Source: Escherichia coli (GTDB lineage Bacteria > Pseudomonadota > Gammaproteobacteria > Enterobacterales > Enterobacteriaceae). Taken from it: a stretch of 64,000 bases of DNA. Positions 33,578 through 56,619 of this stretch are shown in pieces. The notes beneath the pieces were generated by a model. It searched no databases. It was not told where the DNA came from and saw nothing but the letters and a program-made list of their open reading frames with translations. Each line of letters opens with the position of its first letter. The first letter of the stretch is position 1. The translations under genes were made by a program, and so were the position numbers. The DNA lies in assembly GCF_009931435.1 (NCBI RefSeq), contig NZ_CP043414.1. One strand, written 5' to 3'.

Positions 33578-34207
33578 TTACAATATCTGGGGCCAGGGAT
33601 TGTTTTCCGCCAAATATCGCGTTGCAGAAAGTCGGCAAATAATTAACACTTTGTCTCCTTTAGTGAAAATTTTTCCTTCTTCAGGCTCTAGTAGTAAATA
33701 ATGTATTTGGCCAAATTGATCGGTGAGTTTTCCTTCGCAGGGATTACCTGAAGTGGCCTGATGACCGGTAATGAACGCCATGCTACCAATATATTCTTCT
33801 TCTGTAATAGCTGAACTATGGTCGCGTGGAATCCAGGGCGCAACTATTTTACCGGTATAATGCACCGCAATAATCGTAAACAGTAAACTGACAGGAGCCA
33901 CGAACAGGTTCGAGAGTGGTGATTGCCAAACCATGATGCAGGCATGCTGCAACAGGATGCCAATAAGACCAAAAAAACCAGCCAGTAAACAGAGAACGAC
34001 GAGAGCTGGCAATCTTCCGATATTGAGATAATGAAGTGCCTGGCTAATATGACCTGTGGTTATGGAATCATAATGGTCAAGATGTGCATCAAGAGCACCG
34101 GAGAGCATGTGACCGCAGATAAGCGCAAAAATTTCTAAAAGGCCGATCAACAGTACAAAGGAAATAGCGAAAAGATAAGGGGTGTTATAGTCGGCGAATA
34201 AAATCAT
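33578..34207 (-). CDS. yqiJ: NfeD-like inner-membrane protein, partner of YqiK
   Basis: ORF track 209 aa polytopic membrane protein upstream of yqiK. Confidence 0.8.
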
Positions 34208-37301: not shown

Positions 37302-37443
37302 CGACAACTCCTTATAAATCTTTACCTTCAGGCAGATCGTCAAAATAACTGATGATCATCATCATTGTTATCCGGGTTCTTACTCCGCCGAACAAGCGTA
37401 TTGTGAGGATATCAAAATGACACCTTTAGTTAAGGATATCATC

Positions 37444-44451: not shown

Positions 44452-46347
<1,896 letters not shown>

Positions 46348-46373
46348 TAATCCTCCCGCCAGAAGAATAAAAC

Positions 46374-46408
46374 ATAGCCCGGTATACAAGTGTATACCGG
46401 GCTTTTTT
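46374..46408. terminator. Bidirectional terminator between parE and the islet receptor gene
   Basis: gcccggtataca agtg tataccgggc followed by tttttt; receptor stop codon abuts at 46411. Confidence 0.7.
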
Positions 46409-46410
46409 GA

Positions 46411-48552
46411 TCAAAATTCCATTTTCACCGTGAATTGCACTTCACGAGGATCGCCAATCTGGTTGCCCAGATTATTTGTGGCGATGGAAGAGGTGTAATA
46501 CGTTTTATCAAACAGGTTTTTGACGTTTAATTGCAGTGTGACCGGATACTGCAATTTCATTTTGTATGCGGCGAAGGCATCGGCAACAAAATAGCCTGGC
46601 AGATAATAGTCAGCCCCATTGGTTGCCGAACGACGGCTTACACCATGTCCACCACCGCCAAACGTCAGTGTGTTATTGCCTGGCATGTTATGAATATCAT
46701 AGGTCAGGAATAGCGAACCGGTATGACGAGGAACATTCGGCAATGGTTTCCCTGCATAATCAGGATCCTCCAGAACCTTAGCATCGGTATAGCCGTAGCT
46801 GGCAATGATATTAATGTTTTCAGTTAATGCTCCCGCAAGGTCGACTTCTACCCCTCTTGAACGAACACGGCCTGCCGTTTTGGCAATGGTTTCATCACCA
46901 ACACTTTCGGTATACAACACATTACGTTTATGGATATCAAACAGCGCAATATCTGCGGTGATACCATCGAATAGCTCGAATTTTGCCCCGACTTCGTAAG
47001 CATTAGATGATTCTGGTGGTAGATCGCCAATGTAGCTGGCAATTGACGATTGCGGCATAAATGTTTGCGAATAATTGGCAAATAAGGATACCGATGGCGT
47101 CAGTTTGTAGACCAATCCCAGTTTGGGAGTCCATTGTTCATCGCGGCTGTCAGTATTGACATTAAAAGGACGGCCTTTACCCGCATACTGCGTGTAATAC
47201 TGATAGCGGAGCCCGGCGACGGCAATCCAGTTATCGGTCAGATAGAGTGCATCCTGTGCATAAGCTGAGTAGCTCTCCTGTTTGATCGTCTGATCACTGT
47301 CCGACGCCGAGACCGTTGTGCATTTGCTGGTATTGCCATAAACAGGGTTGTAGATATTGAAATCTTTAGCTTTTTTACAGCGAATCATATCTGTGCGCAG
47401 AAGATCATAATATTCATATGACACCCCACCCAGAATCTCATTATAGAATCCAGCAACATCAACATTCCCTTGCAGATCCGCACGAGTAGCATGCATACGC
47501 TGGGTAGATCCTTGAGTTGCATCAACACGCCGTGTCAGCGTTCCTGTCGTTGCATCATACGCGGTAACACGCGCCTGATTATCGCTGTATTTATCCTGGC
47601 TGTAGCTGTAATCAAAGCGCGCTGTCCACTGGCTATTGAGATGATATTCTGCGTTGAGTTGCGCCAGATCGGACTGACCATCTGTAATATTAAACGGTTC
47701 GTCAAAACGTATTTTTCGATCAACGTTTACGGGCTGTTTCGTCGTAAGGTCGAAAATCGTTCCACGATCGAACGGAGTTTTATAGTCCCGATGGGAATAG
47801 AGCATGGTTACTGTTGCATTATCACCAAACCAGGTGAGTGACGGGGCAATAAATGTACTGCGCTCTTTACCGAAGTTTCGCCAGTAATCTTCATCCTGCA
47901 CTTCCCCGGTAAGGCGATACGCCAGCTGAGTGCCTTCAATGGGACCTGTGATATCCAATTGCCCAGTGCCTCCGCCAAAACTGGAGGAAGTGGCTGAGAC
48001 AGTACCATGGAATGTTTTTTCCGGGCGCTTTGTCACGACGTTAATCAGTCCGCCAGGATCGAGAATGCCATACAGCGTGGAGGCCGGACCTTTTAGCACT
48101 TCCACACGTTCTGTGGCGGCGTTGAAACTGCGAGGAAGTACAGTTCGCAGGCCGTTGGTCATGATGGAGCCATCCCGGTTAGCACCAAACCCACGACGTA
48201 CAAAAGCATCCTGAGTCCCGCCTAATGTATTGGTCTGTACCACGTTACTGACGTTATAAAGTGCCTCATCCAGCGTCGTCGCATTCTGATTTTCCAGAAC
48301 TTGATCGCTAACCGTATTGACCACCTGCGGGATATCCAGCATCGGCATATCGGTTAATGTCGCCGTGGAGGTGCTCAGAGGTTGATAACCATCGGTCGCC
48401 TCAGTTGCGGTATTTGCATCCGCTGTAACAGTGATTGTTTCGCCATCTTTGGTCGTTACAGTGTCGGTTGCATGAATCATCGGTGCTGCAAAGAGCAGTG
48501 AAAAGAGCGCTCGACCTTTGAGTCCTGAGAATGAAGGTGTGAACATAGCCAT
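46411..48552 (-). CDS. TonB-dependent outer-membrane receptor (siderophore-type)
   Basis: ORF track 713 aa; signal peptide, TonB box ETITVTA, plug domain, C-terminal aromatic residue (FTVKMEF). Confidence 0.85.
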   Translation of the reverse strand: MAMFTPSFSGLKGRALFSLLFAAPMIHATDTVTTKDGETITVTADANTATEATDGYQPLSTSTATLTDMPMLDIPQVVNTVSDQVLENQNATTLDEALYNVSNVVQTNTLGGTQDAFVRRGFGANRDGSIMTNGLRTVLPRSFNAATERVEVLKGPASTLYGILDPGGLINVVTKRPEKTFHGTVSATSSSFGGGTGQLDITGPIEGTQLAYRLTGEVQDEDYWRNFGKERSTFIAPSLTWFGDNATVTMLYSHRDYKTPFDRGTIFDLTTKQPVNVDRKIRFDEPFNITDGQSDLAQLNAEYHLNSQWTARFDYSYSQDKYSDNQARVTAYDATTGTLTRRVDATQGSTQRMHATRADLQGNVDVAGFYNEILGGVSYEYYDLLRTDMIRCKKAKDFNIYNPVYGNTSKCTTVSASDSDQTIKQESYSAYAQDALYLTDNWIAVAGLRYQYYTQYAGKGRPFNVNTDSRDEQWTPKLGLVYKLTPSVSLFANYSQTFMPQSSIASYIGDLPPESSNAYEVGAKFELFDGITADIALFDIHKRNVLYTESVGDETIAKTAGRVRSRGVEVDLAGALTENINIIASYGYTDAKVLEDPDYAGKPLPNVPRHTGSLFLTYDIHNMPGNNTLTFGGGGHGVSRRSATNGADYYLPGYFVADAFAAYKMKLQYPVTLQLNVKNLFDKTYYTSSIATNNLGNQIGDPREVQFTVKMEF

Positions 48553-48650
48553 TTAGTCTGTTATCCCAAAAACTCGCGGATTGTCGCGAGTGAAAATTGT
48601 TTCTTATTGCTCACTAAGCACTATCCGTTTGTTATTTCGCCATCGGATAT

Positions 48651-48669
48651 GTAATTGAGAATCATTCAA
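48651..48669. promoter_or_regulatory. Candidate Fur box in the receptor/ABC divergent control region
   Basis: gtaattgagaatcattcaa, about 12/19 match to Fur consensus, core GAGAATCATT. Confidence 0.35.
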
Positions 48670-48925
48670 TCACGCGGTAATGTAGTAGTAAATGAGAAAT
48701 AACAAAAAATTGCTACATGTGTTTTTATGAAAGGTTTATACAATTTAATTGTTTTTAATTTATTAATATTTAATGTTTTTATTTTTATGTGCAAAAATAT
48801 TTTACCTGTTATTTACCTTGTTTTTGTGTGGCTTTTAACTGCTTGACTACTACATTTTGTGGCATCAAACTCTCAAAGGAGAATGAGTTTTATTTTTGTT
48901 TGTCTTTGATTAAGTTGGCGTACAC

Positions 48926-49735
48926 GTGGCACATAACGCAAAAGGGCAGGGGCTGATCCTCGACAATGTTTCTGCCGGGTATCACAAGAAAATCATTGTT
49001 GATGGTGTTTCTTTCTCCGTTCCCACAGAAAAAATGACCGTTCTGGTTGGGGCAAACGGCTGTGGAAAGTCGACGCTGCTCAGCACCATTGCTCGTATCT
49101 TGCATCCCATGGGCGGTTCGATATTGCTTGATGGCAACGCGATTCACGAGCAACCAACGAAAGCGTTATCCCGTAGACTTGGGATCTTGCCGCAGTCGCC
49201 ATTATTGCCGGAGGGCTTAACCGTTTATGAACTGGTGTCGCGTGGGCGTTTTCCCTGGCAGAATTTCATTCGTCAATGGAGCGACGCCGATGAGCTGGCG
49301 GTAGAAGAGGCCCTGAAATTAACGGGTACGCAGGAGTTTGCACATTTACCTGTTGAAAAACTCTCTGGTGGGCAGCGCCAGCGTTGCTGGATTGCGATGG
49401 TGTTGGCGCAAAAGACGCCTTATATCCTGCTGGATGAACCCACAACCTGGCTTGATTTACGTTATCAGGTTGAAATTCTTGAGTTATTACATGATTTAAC
49501 GCGTCATCACGGGCGTACAGTCGTCGTGGTGTTGCATGATCTGAATTTTGCCGTCAATTATGGCGATACGTTGATATTTTTACGCCAGGGGAAAGTGGTG
49601 CGTGTGTTGAATGAGGGGGAGCATTGCACGCCTGAGCTGGTAAAAGCGGTCTTTGACGTTGATGTTCACGCATCAATAAATCCTCTGACGGGAAAGCCGT
49701 TCTTCATGCCGTTTCGTGGTGTAGAAAAAGTATGA
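48926..49735 (+). CDS. Iron-siderophore ABC transporter ATP-binding protein (FecE/FepC-like)
   Basis: ORF track 269 aa; Walker A GANGCGKST, signature LSGGQRQR, Walker B ILLDEP; GTG start with weak SD. Confidence 0.85.
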   Translation: MAHNAKGQGLILDNVSAGYHKKIIVDGVSFSVPTEKMTVLVGANGCGKSTLLSTIARILHPMGGSILLDGNAIHEQPTKALSRRLGILPQSPLLPEGLTVYELVSRGRFPWQNFIRQWSDADELAVEEALKLTGTQEFAHLPVEKLSGGQRQRCWIAMVLAQKTPYILLDEPTTWLDLRYQVEILELLHDLTRHHGRTVVVVLHDLNFAVNYGDTLIFLRQGKVVRVLNEGEHCTPELVKAVFDVDVHASINPLTGKPFFMPFRGVEKV

Positions 49736-50715
49736 TGCGCACAGGGCTGGTTACTGTAATTTTCCTCGCCTTACTGCTGGTGGGATGCGTGGTATATCCA
49801 GGGATTGGTGCCCGATTTATTGCACCACAAACGGTGTTGCAGGCATTTCTTCATTTTGATCTGCAAAACTTCGATCACAACGTAATTGTAAGACTCCGTT
49901 TGCCGCGTTTAGCGGCAGCATTGCTTACCGGTGCTTCTCTTGGCGTTGCTGGTGCTTTGTTGCAGGCTGTCATTCGTAACCCATTGGGGGAGCCACATAT
50001 TTTAGGCTTAAATGCCGGAGCCGCTCTTGCTGTCGTTGCCGCCAGTGCGCTTGGACTGGCCTTTCCGATTGGACGCCCACTGCTGGCATCTACGGGGGGC
50101 GCGTTATTGTTCCTGTTGATATTGCTGCTTTCCTCCGCAGGGCGTTCAGGGTTAACGCCAATGAAAGTTACTTTATGCGGCGTGGCGCTATCGGCGTTCG
50201 TGTCCTCAATAACGGCTGCAATCCTGATTCTTGACGAACAAACACTGCTGGCGATGCGGACATGGCTAGCAGGTGATTTAGCGGGGCAGGATTGGGCGAC
50301 GCTGGGTACGTCCGCCTGGTTTTCTCTGGGGGGATTTGTGTTAGCCCTTTACCTTGCACCCTCCCTTAACATGTTGGCACTGGGCGATCGCATGGCGCAG
50401 GGGCTGGGCGTCTCTGTATTCCGCACGCGAACATTCACCCTGCTTGCGATCGCGTTGCTCTGTGGCGCAGCCGTATCGATTGCTGGCCCCATTGGTTTTG
50501 TCGGCCTGCTAGTACCGCAGATTGTCCGGCGTCTGGTATCAGCGGATCTGCGCGTTCTGCTCCCTCTTTCAGCTTGTGTCGGCGCACTTTTGTTATTACT
50601 GGCAGATATTATTGCCCGTACGCTTTTCACGCCCCATGAGTTAGCGACCGGTGTCATGACGGCGTTAGTTGGTGCGCCTGTTTTTGTCATTATGGCGACG
50701 AGGATGTTCAAATGA
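49732..50715 (+). CDS. ABC transporter permease (FecCD family)
   Basis: ORF track 327 aa polytopic; overlaps neighbours by 4 nt. Confidence 0.85.
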   Translation: MMRTGLVTVIFLALLLVGCVVYPGIGARFIAPQTVLQAFLHFDLQNFDHNVIVRLRLPRLAAALLTGASLGVAGALLQAVIRNPLGEPHILGLNAGAALAVVAASALGLAFPIGRPLLASTGGALLFLLILLLSSAGRSGLTPMKVTLCGVALSAFVSSITAAILILDEQTLLAMRTWLAGDLAGQDWATLGTSAWFSLGGFVLALYLAPSLNMLALGDRMAQGLGVSVFRTRTFTLLAIALLCGAAVSIAGPIGFVGLLVPQIVRRLVSADLRVLLPLSACVGALLLLLADIIARTLFTPHELATGVMTALVGAPVFVIMATRMFK

Positions 50716-51761
50716 GTCGGATAATGAACGTCGGGCTACGCCCACTACGTGTTGGTAAGTTTTCGACACTGGTACGCCCTAAAAATCTGCTGTTGCTTGG
50801 TGGGCTGTTCCTGCTTGCGGTTGGAATACTGATATTCGGTCTGATGCAGGGTTCTTTCTCTGTTCCGGCATCGGAAGTAGGACGAGCGTTGTTTGCTCCA
50901 GAAAACGTAAGCACAGACGCACGTTATATTGTGCAGGATATTCGCTTGCCGAGAGTCATCATGGCATTGCTATGCGGGGCCATGTTAGGTATGGCAGGGG
51001 CCGCAATGCAATCCATTGCACGTAACGGCCTTGCCGATCCTGGTTTAATCGGCGTCAAAGAAGGATGTAGCGTGGCTGTGCTGTGGCTGATTTTCCAGTT
51101 TCCAATGCTGGGAATGTTCTGGCGTCCAGTGGCTGGTCTTGCTGGCGGCCTGTTGGTGGCTTTAATCGTGATTTTTTGTGCGCGCGATATTTCCCGCCCG
51201 CGATTTGTTCTGATTGGTATTGGTGTTTCCTGGTTTTTCGCCGCCGGTATCGGTGTATTTATGACCACTGCAGATGTTCGAGATGTACAAACTGCATTGA
51301 TGTGGTTATCGGGAAGCCTGCATGCAGCTAACTGGATGTTAGTCGGTATTTCAGCCTGTTGGATGTTGCCAGCCGCTCTTTTATTGCTGTTCACCGCCAG
51401 GACGGCGGATATCGCTCTGCTTGGTCATCAGGTGGCAACCGGGTTAGGCGTGAATAGTTCTCGCCTGGCGTTGTTACGTGTCGCCGCACCCATAATCCTG
51501 ACAGCCGTCTGCGTTTCGTGTGTTGGTAACATAGGTTTTGTCGGATTGATAGCACCCCATATATCACGTTTTATTCTACGTGGCGGGCAGACGACATTAC
51601 TGCTGGGGAGCGCGGTATCGGGGGCGTTGTTAGTTATTCTGGCGGATAGCATTGGTCGTTTGGCTTTTTTGCCTTTGCAACTGCCTGCCGGAATCATTAT
51701 CTCACTGATTGGTGGACCATTTTTTTTGCTACTGCTCTGGCAGCGCAGGAACAGTTTTTAA
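50712..51761 (+). CDS. ABC transporter permease (FecCD family), second subunit
   Basis: ORF track 349 aa polytopic. Confidence 0.85.
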   Translation: MSRIMNVGLRPLRVGKFSTLVRPKNLLLLGGLFLLAVGILIFGLMQGSFSVPASEVGRALFAPENVSTDARYIVQDIRLPRVIMALLCGAMLGMAGAAMQSIARNGLADPGLIGVKEGCSVAVLWLIFQFPMLGMFWRPVAGLAGGLLVALIVIFCARDISRPRFVLIGIGVSWFFAAGIGVFMTTADVRDVQTALMWLSGSLHAANWMLVGISACWMLPAALLLLFTARTADIALLGHQVATGLGVNSSRLALLRVAAPIILTAVCVSCVGNIGFVGLIAPHISRFILRGGQTTLLLGSAVSGALLVILADSIGRLAFLPLQLPAGIIISLIGGPFFLLLLWQRRNSF

Positions 51762-51771
51762 CGGGAGTTAT

Positions 51772-52719
51772 ATGCGTTTATTTTTTTCTCTGCTGATACT
51801 GTTGTCATTTTTTTCCCGTGCAACAGAACCTGTTCAGGTATTTACTGATGATTTAGGGCGCAAAGTCACTGTTCCTGCTCATCCAAAGAGAATTGTCTCT
51901 TTACACGATCTTGATATCACTATTCCTCTGATTGAGCTCGGTGTACCTCCTATCGCCAGCCACGGGCGAACTCGGCCTGACGGTAGCCATTTCATTCGAT
52001 CTGGCGCGTTATTGACAGGTGTCGACTTTGATAATTCATCGATCGCCTTTATTGGTACCGCTGATATTGATATTGAAGCGATTGTGGCGGCAAAGCCTGA
52101 CCTGATCATCACAGAACCGACCCGTAATACGCCCATTGAACAACTTGAAAAAATTGCGCCCACGGTGAGCATTGATCATCTCAAAGGGGGCGCGCCAGAA
52201 ATCTATCGCAAGCTGGCAGAACTTACAGGAACGCAGTCGCAGCTGGCGATACTTGAACGCCGCTATCAGGCACAAATCAATGCGCTGAAGGCGACGCTGG
52301 ACAGCCAAAAAATAACGGTATCGGTGATTCAGGCAAACCAGGGAAAAATTAATGTGATGCATAGCTATCATTCGCTGGGGCGGGTATTACGCGATGCTGG
52401 TTTTCGTTTTCCGCCGCTGATTGAGAGCATTCCTGAAGGTGGGCGAATGGATGTGAGCGCGGAGCGTTTACCTGAACTGGATGCCGATTTTGTTTTTGCA
52501 ACCTGGCGCGGTGACACCGGGGGTAAACCTCAGGATGAGCTGGCAGCAATGGAAAAAGTCATGCCGGGATGGTGTCAGTTTCTGACTGCCTGTCGTTCCG
52601 GGCGTTATGTGCTGATTTCTCGTGAAGAGGCAATTTCTAACTCCTTTGCATCTCTGGGGCTGATGGCTGCGCAGATACAATCACAAATTGCAGGGCGACC
52701 TCTACCGGAGGCTAAATGA
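51772..52719 (+). CDS. Periplasmic siderophore-binding protein (class III, FecB/FhuD-like)
   Basis: ORF track 51709..52719; start MRLFFSLLILLSFFSRA at 51772 with gggag SD; signal peptide. Confidence 0.8.
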   Translation: MRLFFSLLILLSFFSRATEPVQVFTDDLGRKVTVPAHPKRIVSLHDLDITIPLIELGVPPIASHGRTRPDGSHFIRSGALLTGVDFDNSSIAFIGTADIDIEAIVAAKPDLIITEPTRNTPIEQLEKIAPTVSIDHLKGGAPEIYRKLAELTGTQSQLAILERRYQAQINALKATLDSQKITVSVIQANQGKINVMHSYHSLGRVLRDAGFRFPPLIESIPEGGRMDVSAERLPELDADFVFATWRGDTGGKPQDELAAMEKVMPGWCQFLTACRSGRYVLISREEAISNSFASLGLMAAQIQSQIAGRPLPEAK

Positions 52720-53604
52720 TCCAGAAAGATAAAGCGCGGGTTGATATTTTTGGTGAGCGTTTTCGCACTCGCGCGAGTCAGTTAACGCCTGGGTTAAGAG
52801 CTGTCGCCAGCTACATTAATGAGCATCGTGAAGTGGTACTCGAGCAAACGGCGATGGAAATTGCGGCCACGTTGAACACTTCCGATGCCACAGTTATCAG
52901 GGCTATACAGGCCCTGGGGTTTGCCGGGCTGCGTGATCTGAAACGCACTCTGGAACAGTGGCTTGGTCCAGCCCTTAGTTCCAGCGAAAAGATGTCTACG
53001 ACGGTGAGTAACTTGACGAGCGATGTTAACACCGCAATCGACTTTGTTCTTGAAGGGCATTTGTATACCTGTAATGTCCTGTCAGAGCCTGAAAACCGCC
53101 ACGCGCTTGCGCAAGCTGTAGCGTTGTTGGTGCAGGCACGGCAAGTCGCAATTTTTGGCATTGGCGCTTCGGGTATTCTGGCGGACTATACCGCACGACT
53201 ATTCAACCGCATAGGTTTGCCTGCCACGGCACTAAACCGTACGGGTATTGGCCTTGCCGAGCAACTGATCGCGCTTCAACGTGGCGATGTTCTGATCATG
53301 ATGGCGCAAAAATCTGCGCACCGGGAAGGGGTGACAACGCTTCGTGAGGCGAGGCGGCTGGGGAATCCCTGTTATTTTGCTGACAAACGCGCTGGATTCA
53401 CGTTTTAGCAAAGACGCCAGTATCGTGATTCATGTTCCGCGCGGGGATGAAAAAGGGAAAACGCCGCTACATGGTACGGTATTGTTGTGTCTGGAAATGA
53501 TTGTCTGGTCGGTAGCTTCCGCAGTGCCGCAGCGTGCGGTTAAAACCATTAAGCGAATTAACGATTTCCATCGAGGACTGAAAACGGGAAGAAAGAATGG
53601 CTAA
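52716..53604 (+). pseudogene. RpiR/MurR-family regulator (HTH_6 plus SIS domain) interrupted by a +1 frameshift near 53357..53362
   Basis: ORF 52716..53408 ends in NPCYFADKRAGFTF; ORF 53344..53604 in the next frame continues the SIS domain as GIPVILLTNALDSRF...; the two join across a gggg/aa run. Confidence 0.7.
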
Positions 53605-53616
53605 TCTGGGCTGAGA

Positions 53617-53645
53617 CCGGTAGCAGCACCGGCCTCTTTTCAGGA
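53617..53645 (+). terminator. Hairpin after the regulator gene (ccggtagcagcaccgg plus T-rich tail)
   Basis: Inverted repeat seen in sequence between regulator and ygiN. Confidence 0.45.
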
Positions 53646-53648
53646 ATG

Positions 53649-53963
53649 TTAAATCCCCGGTTGCAGGATACGAATATTCATCTCCAGCACGTCGCCTTTT
53701 ACGGCTTCGCTGTACGCCTTCATGTGCGGGGTTTGCAGGTGCGCTTCAAGGTGCGCGATGCTTTCCCACTGCTCAATCATCACGATAGAATCCGGTGCCA
53801 TAGACTGGAAACTCACGCCAGCAGCGCAATCCACCATTGGCGCATAGCCGTGGCAACCTTCTTCTTTCAATACGGTTGGAACGATTTTAGCAAACTGATC
53901 CAACACTGCCTGACGGTGATGTTGACCTGGACGAGTACGGATTTCTGCGATTACTGTAATCAT
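53649..53963 (-). CDS. ygiN: Quinol monooxygenase
   Basis: ORF track 104 aa MITVIAEIRTRPGQHHRQAVLDQF. Confidence 0.9.
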   Translation of the reverse strand: MITVIAEIRTRPGQHHRQAVLDQFAKIVPTVLKEEGCHGYAPMVDCAAGVSFQSMAPDSIVMIEQWESIAHLEAHLQTPHMKAYSEAVKGDVLEMNIRILQPGI

Positions 53964-53993
53964 GGTTAACTCCTTCTAAAGCCAGAGCTCTAG

Positions 53994-54575
53994 TTAACCA
54001 AAAATTTCCACAAGATGCTTGCGATATTCTTCAGTATAGCGGGGAACATCAGGCATTTTTATCACGTCATTAGCGATAAATGTCGGTAGCGGTTCCATAC
54101 CGAGGAATTGGTTTGCTTTATGGAACGGCAGGTACACACCGTCAACACCAACGCCGTGGAAGAACTGATCTTTTTCGGTGAAGGCTTCCATTGGTGCGTT
54201 CCAGGTCAGGGAAAGCATATATTTTTTGCCCTGTATCAGGCCGCCGGAACCGTATTTTTTTGATGGATCTTTGCGGGTACGACCATCGCTGGCATACAGA
54301 GTCCCGTGACCTTCGGTGAATACATCATCAATATATTTTTTCACTGTCCACGGCGCGCCCATCCACCAGCCTGGCATCTGCCAGATCACCACATCAGCCC
54401 AGAGAAAGTTTTGTACTTCGGCTTTGACATCGTAGTCGCTCTCGGCGCGAACAATACGGACATCATGCCCGAGGTCGCGCAGCGTGCCATCCGCGACTTC
54501 GGTCAGGGTGTCGTTCAGTTGACCATTGGAGTGGGCGAATTTTTTCGCGCCGTTGATAATCAGGATGTTGCTCAT
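53994..54575 (-). CDS. mdaB: NADPH:quinone oxidoreductase
   Basis: ORF track 193 aa MSNILIINGAKKFAHSNGQLN. Confidence 0.9.
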   Translation of the reverse strand: MSNILIINGAKKFAHSNGQLNDTLTEVADGTLRDLGHDVRIVRAESDYDVKAEVQNFLWADVVIWQMPGWWMGAPWTVKKYIDDVFTEGHGTLYASDGRTRKDPSKKYGSGGLIQGKKYMLSLTWNAPMEAFTEKDQFFHGVGVDGVYLPFHKANQFLGMEPLPTFIANDVIKMPDVPRYTEEYRKHLVEIFG

Positions 54576-54891: not shown

Positions 54892-55224
54892 ATGTTAAAG
54901 CATAAAATTCAAACAATATTTGAAGCTCTGTTATATATAGTGCTTACTTATTGGTTAATAGATGCTTTTTTTGCATTCAATAAGTATGACTGGATGCTTG
55001 AGTCGGGAGACAATATTTGCAGTATACCTTCCGTTTCAGGCGAAGATCGTATATTGCAAACAATGATTGCAGCATTTTTTCTTCTGACGCCACTTATTAT
55101 TCTTATCTTAAGAAAACTCTTTGTGCGAGAAATCTTTGAGTTTTGGTTATATGTAATCTCGCTCGTTATTTGTTTGGTTTGTGGTTGGTGGCTTTTTTGG
55201 GGACGGTTTATATTTTGCTATTAA
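54892..55224 (+). CDS. ygiZ: Inner-membrane protein
   Basis: ORF track 110 aa, 3 predicted TM segments. Confidence 0.7.
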   Translation: MLKHKIQTIFEALLYIVLTYWLIDAFFAFNKYDWMLESGDNICSIPSVSGEDRILQTMIAAFFLLTPLIILILRKLFVREIFEFWLYVISLVICLVCGWWLFWGRFIFCY

Positions 55225-55269: not shown

Positions 55270-56619
55270 TTACCAGCTTACTTTCGCCTCAAATCCACCT
55301 TGTTCCGCATTCCCAAACTCAACATTCATGCCATGCAGCTTGGCGATTCGCTGGACAATTGAAAGCCCAAGTCCACTGCCGGTAGCGGTTTGTCCGGGTG
55401 GGCGATAGAAGCGTTCGCCAATTCTCGCCAGTGCCTCTGGTGTCACACCGGGGCCGTTATCCCTCACGATGAAATTATCGGCATTCAGCGTGACGTCCAC
55501 CACGCTACCTTGTGGACTGTAGCGCACGGCGTTATCCAGCAAATTTCGCACCAACAAACTTAGCAATAGCGGTTGTCCGGTGCGTTTGATGCCGTGGGCA
55601 TTGAGTGTCAGTCGCACGTCAATTTTTGCCTGCTGCGCCGTGTGGTAAATATCCATCACCGACGATTGCAGGAGATCTTCAAGCGGGATCTCCGCGACGT
55701 CCTGAAGGTTATCCAGTGAGTCCAGCCGCGATAGCGTGAGCAGTTGATCAACCAGACGAGTAGCACGATCGATCCCGGAATGTAATTGGAGCAGCGCTTT
55801 TTTCCGCGCCTGCGGATCATCGTCAGAGAGCTGCGCAACTTCGGTTTGCACTTTCAGCGCCGTTAACGGGCTTCGTAGTTCATGCGCTGCGTCGGAGGTA
55901 AAGCGTCGTTCACGAACCATCATCGCATGTGTGCGGGCGAACAGTTGATTTAGCGACTCAACCAGTGGACGCACTTCGCTGGGTACGCCCGTCGCGTTTA
56001 GTGGTTTTTCCGAGTCAGGGTCACGCATACGTAGTGCCAGCGCCAGTTTGTTCAGCGGCGCGAGTTCACGACCCAGTAGTACCATCATGATGATTAACAT
56101 AATCGGCAGTGCGACAAGCCACGGGATCAATTGCCCGGCAACAATTGCCAGCGCCATGTCTTCGCGGTATTCCCATTCCTGACCAACAACGATGCGATAT
56201 TTGCCATCAGGTGAGGTCATCCAGACAAAACGCCAGGGATCGTCTTCACCGACCAGTTGCCCGTCAGCAAAACCTTCCCGTTGATAGCTATAGGGAATAT
56301 CTTCTCCGTTATCCCCATCATTAAGGACCATTCTGCCGTCGTGGGTAAAGATGGCAAAGGTCAGCGCATCGTCATCAACATGACCGTGTTTTAATTTATT
56401 TGGCGTCTGTGCCATGCGATCCGCCGCGTTGATTTCGTTGAGATCGAGCGTACTTAACCGTTTGGCAAACAGCATCAGTTGGGTGTCGAACAACTCATCG
56501 ACGTTATCCGTTGTTTGTTTCCAGGCGACAAAGCTGGAAAGCAGCCAGGTCACCGAGGCCAGAATTAAAAAGATTAGCGTCAGCCTGACTCGCAGACTAA
56601 GACGTTGGGTAAATTTCAT
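55270..56619 (-). CDS. qseC: Quorum-sensing sensor histidine kinase
   Basis: ORF track 449 aa; H-box AAHELRSPL, HATPase motifs. Confidence 0.9.

Follow-up and report, generated by a model that had tools for sequence, protein, structure and literature searches.

A frameshifted allele of fitR, a probable RpiR/MurR-type repressor gene of the Escherichia coli fit iron-uptake locus, and the pairing of its family with siderophore receptors

The window analysed in this study, a 64-kb stretch of Escherichia coli DNA, carries the fit island between parE and ygiN with its six-gene make-up complete: a receptor gene (fitA) diverges from genes for an ATPase, two permeases, a binding protein and a regulator (fitBCDE-fitR). 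The TonB-dependent siderophore receptor (TBDT) gene fitA (46411..48552, minus strand) is an intact ORF of 713 aa that matched TIGR01783 with 375 bits (cut-off 223.5) and is so named by RefSeq in relatives; its nearest named receptors in NCBIfam were FhuA, FoxA and FhuE, with all scores under their cut-offs. On the plus strand, an intact gene for a FecE-like ABC ATPase, fitB (48926..49735), was identified from its ORF, a profile match and the RefSeq annotation of relatives, and is followed by two intact FecCD-family permease genes, fitC (49732..50715; ORF and profile match) and fitD (50724..51761 from the RefSeq start; the mechanical ORF begins at 50712). The intact gene fitE (51772..52719) encodes a 315-aa periplasmic siderophore-binding protein with a Peripla_BP_2 match and the signal peptide MRLFFSLLILLSFFSRA. 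Its stop codon overlaps the ATG of fitR (52716..53604, plus strand), the final gene of the operon that runs divergent from fitA, which was delineated from ORFs, Pfam matches and the alignment of relatives as an RpiR/MurR-type repressor gene with a frameshift. A terminator-like hairpin, CCGGTAGCAGCACCGG, with a T-run lies at 53617..53632 (plus strand) between the convergent fitR and ygiN.

The same locus was found in 1,870 of 5,426 complete E. coli genomes with a DNA identity of 97–99.7%, and in RefSeq the gene of relatives is annotated as 'MurR/RpiR family transcriptional regulator' beside siderophore ABC and TBDT genes. The gene order also agrees with that in the 2008 Open Microbiol J paper on FitR (PMC2593036), in which the FitB ATPase, the FitC and FitD permeases and the FitE binding protein precede FitR, itself an HTH and SIS protein encoded divergently from fitA. 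Because of the gene order, the parE/ygiN site, the DNA identity and the published description of fitA-E and fitR, the interval 52716–53604 is very probably fitR of the E. coli fit locus, an already published repressor gene whose allele is frameshifted here.

According to the published work, FitR has an HTH and a sugar-isomerase domain (SIS), binds the DNA between fitA and fitB, and as an auto-repressor lowers the activity of both of these divergent promoters by ∼2–5 fold; its effect adds to that of Fur and does not depend on it, Fur repression of fit having been reported as unpublished data (PMC2593036). The protein was reported as 28 kDa, 'consistent with prediction' (PMC2593036), whereas the 295-aa FitR computes to 32.2 kDa, which we counted against the identity picture. 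The regulator–receptor pairing is real and unusual among iron systems, yet it is not new, the association of an RpiR-type regulator with the fit iron-uptake genes having been known since FitR was published in 2006/2008. The fit system of E. coli strain i484 was reportedly described by Ouyang and Isaacson in Infect Immun in 2006. A literature search for later work, covering both what Fit transports and TonB-dependent receptors under RpiR control, turned up nothing beyond the 2008 paper and one from 2022, which states that there are no data for FitA (PMC9409007). The published FitR work left the operator, the ligand and the distribution outside E. coli undefined; new here are the distribution beyond E. 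coli, a predicted operator, the loss of phosphate-binding serines and a private frameshift.

In the window ORF 52716–53408 (230 aa), Pfam searches placed HTH_6 (PF01418) at residues 15–82 (E 6e-10) and SIS (PF01380) at residues 138–219 (E 3e-7), the latter covering model positions 2–83 of 131. In the intact 295-aa orthologue WP_032185141.1, SIS extended over residues 138–247 (E 9e-14) and HTH_6 matched with E 1e-9. The HTH_6 plus SIS architecture claimed in the initial annotation was thus recovered by profile search, at full length in the intact orthologue and with the SIS domain cut in this window. The AlphaFold model of the intact orthologue (pLDDT 92.6) matched full-length RpiR-family structures by Foldseek, namely RccR (8k3b, E 6.5e-16) and Vibrio vulnificus NanR (4ivn, E 1e-14), and RccR was the top PDB match by sequence too (E 1e-14, 22–23% identity). 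No named NCBIfam equivalog (AlsR, HexR, MurR, PRK11337 and others) was reached, the best score being 78.5 bits against cut-offs of 296–920; by these sequence comparisons, FitR is a distinct, unnamed branch of the RpiR/MurR family.

The interval 52716–53604 had been taken to be one gene, and a regulator gene does lie at exactly these coordinates, but its 889 nt are not a multiple of 3 and hold two ORFs (52716–53408 and 53344–53604). One extra A at 53364 breaks the frame (CTGGGGAATCCC here versus CTGGGGATCCC in all relatives), and without this base the translation is a 295-aa protein identical to reference FitR. The 230-aa product is native through residue 216 and continues with 14 out-of-frame residues to a stop at 53408; in the AF2 model, the 79 residues lost from the end make up two β-strands of the SIS domain and its two C-terminal helices. 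An intact FitR repressor is accordingly not encoded here, and the allele differs from the published FitR by a +1 frameshift that is private to this sequence, the same insertion not recurring in any of the other 1,867 complete E. coli genomes with fit. Programmed frameshifting was rejected on the grounds of this absence and of the lack of a slippery heptamer at CTG GGG AAT CCC. The fitR allele is most likely null in this genome, which would modestly derepress fit with Fur control still in place. Alternatively, a single miscalled base might have produced the frameshift in an organism with an ordinary intact fitR, a reading that we regard as possible although the less probable one. The uniqueness of the insertion against 1,867 genomes and the complete lack of other amino acid changes relative to the reference protein would suit such an artefact. 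However, the sequence is not error-ridden, since a comparison over 12 kb with the nearest genome gave just one other indel, of 3 nt and in frame; moreover, the change is from A to AA outside long homopolymers, and fit gene decay occurs elsewhere, as in strain 2020CK-00188, where fitE is frameshifted. For annotation, fitR should be recorded here as a pseudogene, or the base be re-checked, and the fit transporter genes as intact.

Beyond E. coli, the regulator–receptor pairing was found in 80 loci from ∼16 enterobacterial genera, some with the six-gene cassette and others with a minimal pair of regulator and receptor, in the sense that nearly every locus, among those with the upstream region covered, showed one or the other. 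Genera with the six-gene cassette include Raoultella, Kosakonia, Erwinia and Sodalis, and the flanks of the module fell into at least 22 (downstream) and at least 16 unrelated contexts. A 45%-identical homologue lies within a co-directional TBDT-ABC operon; no receptor was found near another homologue with 52% identity (P0123), and the contexts of distant homologues on the P0129 and P0132 contigs were uninformative. The proposed attachment of the regulator to a siderophore-type transporter therefore held, as TBDT, ATPase, two permease and binding protein genes all adjoin it and the pairing is conserved across genera. Judged from these gene neighbourhoods, the functional link between regulator and transporter is evolutionarily conserved. 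Some related loci also encode two PstS-like proteins (oxyanion-binding fold) between the binding protein and the regulator; these accessory proteins gave only a weak PstS-family match, and a PepSY_TM protein had no NCBIfam name.

A scan of the 373-bp fitA-fitB intergenic region for consensus sigma-70 promoters found no site, and we placed the promoters by their conservation across genera instead, with good −35 elements, weak −10 elements and an extended TG for PfitA. The proposed PfitA has its −35 at 48687–48692 (reverse complement TTTACT), its −10 at 48664–48669 (reverse complement TTGAAT) and the extended TG at 48671–48672. The proposed PfitB has a −35 of TTGACT (48843–48848, plus strand) and, after a 17-nt spacer, a −10 of CAAACT (48866–48871, plus strand), the position of which is kept in other genera as CAtGAT, CAAAAT or TAAGAT. 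The −35 and spacer of PfitA are overlapped by a predicted FitR box, A1 (48681..48689, minus strand), which reads TGTAGTAGT on the plus strand and ACTACTACA in the direction of fitA, and which together with a partner half-site, A2 (GCTACA, 48712..48717), makes TGTAGT-N25-GCTACA. Over the PfitB −35 lies a second predicted box, B (ACTACTACA, 48846–48854, plus strand), an inverted copy of A1 (93% complementary) that is invariant in type-1 loci.

The ACTACTACA/TGTAGTAGT box over the receptor-promoter −35 travels with the regulator: box A1 had at most one mismatch in every locus analysed, even where the receptor was just 35–38% identical to FitA. Exact box matches in the 64-kb window occurred at the two fit promoters only, against a chance expectation of 0.15, and a third match with one mismatch (33687–33698) lies within an ORF and was taken as chance. 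In 47 of the 73 non-redundant receptor promoters, TGTAG preceded the ACTACTACA core by exactly 28 nt, and in 4 more by 27 nt. A single-palindrome operator was rejected in favour of spaced half-sites, the 13-nt box itself not being palindromic. From this conservation and by analogy with RccR, the FitR operator is predicted to consist of the TGTAGTAGT boxes at both −35 regions. The conservation of the box partly reflects promoter function, as the box includes the −35 hexamer. The distances between the two boxes fell into classes of 164–166, 178 and 184–189 bp, close to 16, 17 and 18 turns of the helix; this hints at looping, but as the classes track phylogeny it was not counted as evidence.

Two Fur-box-like blocks flank these elements. 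Block A (GTAATTGAGAATCATTCAA, 48651..48669) overlaps the −10 and start region of the fitA promoter and is invariant over six genera and in essentially all 73 non-redundant loci, and block B (GAGAATGAGTTTTATTTTT, 48879..48897, plus strand) lies 3′ of the PfitB −10 and is conserved in the alignment. Their matches to the Fur consensus (GATAATGATAATCATTATC) are modest, at 12/19 and 13/19, respectively, although the score of block B was reached at only 17 of the ∼64,000 window positions, and its match rises to 14–15/19 in some genera (GATAATGAGAG..., GATAATGATATTTATTAC; hand count). We infer candidate Fur sites at both blocks, which cover the −10/+1 of the two promoters. Block A is so extremely invariant that another protein, or FitR itself, might be its binder.

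The closest structurally solved relatives are RccR and HexR of Pseudomonas (8k3b, 8ju9; PMC11014249), whose recognition helix is like that of FitR (S-[ED]-x-T-[IV]-[VI]-R), the DNA-contacting R53 of RccR corresponding to R62, which is invariant across the FitR family. The footprinted sites of RccR are TGTAGTAAAACTACA and GTGTAGTAGTCTTG...ACTACA (PMC11014249), and the fit promoters carry TGTAGT/ACTACA half-sites of this type, including the TGTAGTAGT form of the aceA site; the half-site spacing for FitR (N25) exceeds that of the long RccR site by about one helical turn (our own count on the published sequence). By this analogy, FitR would work as RccR does, probably as a tetramer in which TGTAGT/ACTACA half-sites are recognised by the HTH domains, with one predicted box over the −35/spacer of PfitA and a half-site 25 nt off, and the inverted copy over the PfitB −35. 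Together with Fur boxes over the −10/+1 of each promoter, the FitR boxes would give a promoter pair with two locks. The probable role of the SIS domain is to sense a ligand, so that repression would be eased when the cognate siderophore, probably of the hydroxamate type, or its product enters the cytoplasm. As a whole, fitR as the last gene of fitBCDE-fitR, this mechanism and a probable null allele form the best explanation of the locus, which we hold with good confidence.

RccR and HexR differ from FitR in controlling central carbon metabolism and in sensing KDPG, the phosphate of which is held in RccR by four serines, S139, S183, S185 and S188 (PMC11014249). These align with S152, A197, K199 and H202 of FitR, so that only one of the four is kept; the loss holds in all FitR orthologues, and the wider subfamily reads A-Y-G-R-x-Y-x-E. 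The NanR loop S-S-S-G-S-T likewise aligns with A-Q-K-S-A-H of FitR. Since the canonical phosphosugar-phosphate site is not conserved, a classical sugar phosphate is an improbable ligand for FitR. The initial annotation had raised a sugar-containing substrate, such as a glycosylated siderophore, with a breakdown product sensed by the SIS domain as a phosphosugar or amino-sugar derivative. All RpiR-family members with a known ligand do bind sugar phosphates (KDPG, ManNAc-6P, MurNAc-6P), FitR retains the G-x-G-x-S loop (S152) and R165 and has basic residues (K199, H202, R203) where the phosphate sits, and PstS-like proteins occur in some related loci. However, the quadruple Ser-to-Ala mutant of RccR greatly reduces or abolishes the KDPG response, and with three of the four phosphate-binding serines replaced throughout the orthologues and the wider subfamily, the idea of a glycosylated siderophore is left unsupported. 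It is further weakened by the receptors, which resemble the hydroxamate-type FhuA, FoxA and FhuE, and by the surroundings of the module, in which, over at least 22 downstream contexts, no sugar gene (glycosidase, kinase, deacetylase or another) is conserved alongside it; we consider sugar sensing unlikely.

The loss of the canonical ligand-binding loop would suit a ligand-free FitR, in which a degenerate SIS domain only oligomerises and the protein acts as a constitutive negative-feedback damper on fit under Fur derepression. In agreement with this, fitR is co-transcribed with its own targets, an autoregulatory design, and the published effect is just 2–5 fold and iron-independent with no inducer reported (PMC2593036). 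On the other hand, pocket-lining positions are strongly conserved in the subfamily, down to ∼25–30% identity (Y158 in 72 of 83, R165 in 82, E204 in 70 and H252 in 55), which speaks for a binding site still in place. Regulators dedicated to a neighbouring receptor also normally confer substrate specificity, and we judge a ligand-free damper unlikely. Much more tentatively than for the locus as a whole, FitR-type proteins could form a receptor-dedicated RpiR branch, in Enterobacterales and beyond, whose re-tooled SIS pocket would sense an imported siderophore, its iron-free form or a non-sugar product. In such a branch the S-x-S-G-x-T loop is gone and Y158, R165, E204 and H252 are conserved instead. 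If true, this would be the first example of an SIS domain that senses something other than a phosphosugar, and TonB-dependent uptake would gain a new class of substrate-responsive repressors.

MurR (7en5/7en7) and V. vulnificus NanR (4ivn) share the two-domain fold of FitR and likewise repress divergent or adjacent operons, in their case for transport and catabolism, with relief by the cytoplasmic product of import. Their ligands are amino-sugar phosphates bound via an S-x-S-G-x-[ST] loop, which FitR reads as A-Q-K-S-A-H, and their targets are sugar pathways, whereas that of FitR is iron uptake. An SIS domain match alone is no safe ground for inferring 'sugar sensing'. Among iron systems, FecIR, the AraC-type PchR, YbtA, AlcR and FoxR, and PfeRS combine iron control by Fur with a dedicated, system-specific local regulator, as FitR does. 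They belong, however, to unrelated families and are mostly activators, while FitR is a one-component RpiR repressor. The predicted operator and the unconserved phosphosugar site open cheap tests of this second lock on an iron transporter. The fit island is present in about one-third of complete E. coli genomes, and a paper of 2022 proposes that fitA, together with chuA and eefC, marks adherent-invasive (AIEC) strains, most of them in phylogroup B2 (PMC9409007).

The chromosome in the window is E. coli-like, with 99.0% identity to the nearest complete genome over 12 kb, and carries a six-gene block between parE (44455-46347) and ygiN/mdaB (53649-54575, minus strand). A TonB-dependent siderophore receptor gene (fitA, 46411-48552, minus strand) is divergent from plus-strand genes for an ABC ATPase (fitB, 48926-49735), two FecCD permeases (fitC, 49732-50715; fitD, 50724-51761), a periplasmic binding protein (fitE, 51772-52719) and a regulator (fitR), whose start at 52716 overlaps the fitE stop codon. 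In Pfam, the 230-aa ORF at 52716-53408 matched HTH_6 (E 6e-10) and, in truncated form, SIS (E 3e-7), and therefore the initial annotation was correct both in its domain call and in attaching this regulator to a siderophore-type transporter. The fit block was found in 1,870 of 5,426 complete E. coli genomes (~34%). In E. coli genomes without fit, the match to a 1.1-kb query begins only near the ygiN end, and relative to four such genomes (H27-H30) the whole block (46348-53648) is an insert that separates parE from ygiN.

The locus is the already known E. coli fit system, for which Ouyang and Isaacson described a receptor (fitA), an ATPase (fitB), permeases (fitC/D) and a binding protein (fitE), plus fitR, encoding a protein with a helix-turn-helix at its N-terminus and a sugar-isomerase domain at its C-terminus (PMC2593036). 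The flagged pairing is indeed unusual, yet it is not new, having been in the literature since 2006/2008. Over-expression of fitR repressed fitA and fitB, its knockout derepressed them 2-5 fold, and purified FitR shifted the fitA-fitB intergenic fragment (PMC2593036). The effect was independent of iron and Fur (23-fold in the fur, 2.2-fold in the fitR and 52-fold in the double mutant), such that FitR auto-represses the divergent promoters PfitA and PfitB additively with Fur (PMC2593036).

From domain composition, it had been speculated that the substrate or its breakdown product might be a sugar-containing molecule such as a glycosylated siderophore or aminoglycoside-like compound. In the structure of RccR, a Pseudomonas regulator of the RpiR family, the KDPG phosphate is held by S139, S183, S185 and S188, and a quadruple alanine mutant has a greatly reduced or abolished KDPG response. 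A high-confidence phmmer alignment placed these residues at S152, A197, K199 and H202 of FitR, and the S-S-S-G-S-T loop of V. vulnificus NanR was aligned to A-Q-K-S-A-H. FitR thus has a phosphosugar-sensor fold without its phosphate site. The segment reads M-[AG]-Q-K-S-[AP]-H-R-E in all FitR orthologues and A-Y-G-R-x-Y-x-E in the wider subfamily, to about 25-30% identity, in which Y158, R165, E204 and H252 are strongly conserved. None of the NCBIfam equivalogs for named RpiR regulators came near its own cut-off against FitR. Because the phosphate site is absent, the receptors resemble those for hydroxamates and no sugar genes are co-conserved, the idea of a glycosylated siderophore or aminoglycoside is unsupported; the initial interpretation was right in architecture and linkage, while its speculative sugar ligand is weakened. 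FitR might still accept an anionic, even phosphorylated, ligand because of the basic residues at the site.

FitR orthologues with 66-88% identity were found in at least 16 named genera (Salmonella, Enterobacter, Lelliottia, Kosakonia, Phytobacter, Citrobacter, Klebsiella, Raoultella, Kluyvera, Erwinia, Pantoea, Tatumella, Serratia, Rahnella, Shimwellia and Sodalis). Gene-by-gene inspection in five genera showed the same cassette, a receptor divergent from ATPase-FecCD-FecCD-binding protein-regulator, among unrelated neighbours. The proposed survey of co-occurrence, run by tblastn of the window's Fit proteins against 80 genome loci, revealed a conserved pairing with two main architectures, the six-gene cassette and a minimal regulator-receptor module. 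In the latter, seen in some Erwinia as well as in Pantoea, Serratia and Rahnella, another receptor, with 35-38% identity to FitA and likewise FhuA/FoxA-like, is encoded directly divergent to the regulator, and no ABC genes were detected within 10 kb by the same search. In a third architecture, the regulator is preceded by a PepSY_TM membrane protein together with two PstS-like proteins, the latter scoring 51.8-75.2 bits to TIGR02136 and under its cut-off. In one locus (L003, 7007-10004), these genes separate that of the binding protein from the regulator gene, and both PstS-like proteins translated from it appear to lack signal peptides; two further loci (L044 and L049) have the same arrangement, with fitE and fitR about 3 kb apart. 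The last gene of a co-directional receptor-ABC-PstS-like operon encodes a FitR homologue with 45% identity; it follows two PstS-like proteins (L089, 6010-7946). The DNA downstream of the regulator fell into at least 22 unrelated groups and that beyond the receptor into at least 16, so that only a TonB-dependent receptor and, often, the ABC importer are constant partners of the regulator. No sugar-metabolism gene travelling with the regulator was found in these flanks.

The divergent intergenic regions were aligned for six genera and then for all loci, and a few invariant blocks were found within otherwise unalignable DNA. The first, TGTAGTAGT (48681-48689), reads TTTACTACTACA in the fitA direction, with ACTACA joined to a -35 TTTACT; the second, TTGACTACTACA (48843-48854), is its inverted copy at the PfitB -35. 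Each is followed, 17 nt downstream, by a conserved -10 element. The third, GTAATTGAGAATCATTCAA (48651-48669), spans the PfitA -10/+1 and the fourth, GAGAATGAGTTTTATTTTT (48879-48897), lies downstream of the PfitB -10. These last two are the best Fur-consensus matches in the intergenic region (12/19 and 13/19, respectively; scores of at least 13 occur at 17 of about 64,000 window positions), and as predicted Fur boxes they fit the reported Fur repression. The best match in the window (15/19, 56086-56104) is inside qseC, and overlapping 13-14/19 matches (GATGATCATCATCATT) occur near 37350 (37345-37372); both findings probably reflect chance or coding repeats.

The ACTACTACA box was present at the receptor promoter of every locus, even with an unrelated receptor type, and therefore tracks the regulator, not the receptor. 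TGTAG was located exactly 28 nt upstream of the box in 47 of 73 non-redundant promoters, giving TGTAGY-N25-ACTACA, and the exact 12-mer box had no occurrence in the 64-kb window outside the two fit promoters (0.15 matches expected by chance). P. aeruginosa RccR, the best solved-structure match of FitR by both sequence and fold, has footprinted operators in which a TGTAGT/ACTACA palindrome surrounds either a short or a long spacer, including the aceA site GTGTAGTAGTCTTG...ACTACA (PMC11014249). This site shares TGTAGTAGT with the fit promoters, and the DNA-contacting R53 of RccR aligns with R62 of FitR, a residue that does not vary within the FitR family. Box conservation is in part that of the -35 hexamer; from this conservation together with the likeness to RccR operators, we propose the boxes as operators of FitR that overlap the -35/spacer at PfitA and PfitB alike. 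In the PfitA region (48650-48719, fitA direction), the centres of TGTAG, ACTACA and ATTACA follow one another at intervals of exactly 31 nt, or roughly three helical turns. ATTACA lies within the third, Fur-like block, which stays invariant across genera over 20 nt, beyond what a degenerate Fur box needs; it could be a third FitR contact.

In the most likely mechanism, FitR would bind TGTAGT half-sites at both -35 regions as RccR does, Fur would occupy both -10/+1 regions, and a cytoplasmic signal of substrate import would lift FitR repression, a logic of 'low iron AND substrate present' as with other receptor-specific regulators. The remaining interest lies in the FitR ligand, the Fit substrate and this operator model, which is now testable.

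The regulator gene is indeed present at 52716-53604, but its frameshift had been missed: the interval is 889 nt, while its counterpart in strains 2020CK-00188 and RMDEC465 is 888 nt (295 aa, RefSeq 'MurR/RpiR family transcriptional regulator'). Alignment with both strains located an extra A at 53364 (CTGGGGAATCCC in the window versus CTGGGGATCCC) and otherwise one synonymous SNP. The product is native up to residue 216, followed by 14 out-of-frame residues and a stop, and the remaining 3' part forms a separate ORF (53344-53604); deletion of the extra base gives a protein identical to the intact orthologue WP_032185141.1. The 1,867 complete E. coli genomes with this region all lacked the exact 61-mer spanning the insertion and aligned to it with one gap at best. 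The only other indel against the nearest genome over 12 kb was an in-frame 3-nt one in ygiZ (a TTC insertion at 55100-55102), so the window sequence is not generally error-prone. The frameshift therefore reflects either a mutation that is private and very recent or one miscalled base.

In the AlphaFold model of intact FitR (pLDDT 92.6), residues 217-295 hold two of the five strands of the SIS domain and the two long helices at the C-terminus, and the matching elements of RccR form the interfaces of its oligomer and contribute to the ligand pocket. By this model and analogy, the truncated FitR is most likely inactive, and the frameshift would take away the FitR lock in this genome, with the transporter genes intact and Fur-controlled. 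In strain 2020CK-00188, whose fitR is nearest to that of the window, fitE is flagged as frameshifted by RefSeq (L001, 7174-8120). That the broken fit genes differ between close relatives suggests weak selection on the island in this lineage. Purified FitR was reported as 28 kDa, 'consistent with prediction' (PMC2593036), while the 295-aa protein is 32.2 kDa and a start at Met47 would give 26.9 kDa; a shorter fitR ORF may have been used in that study.
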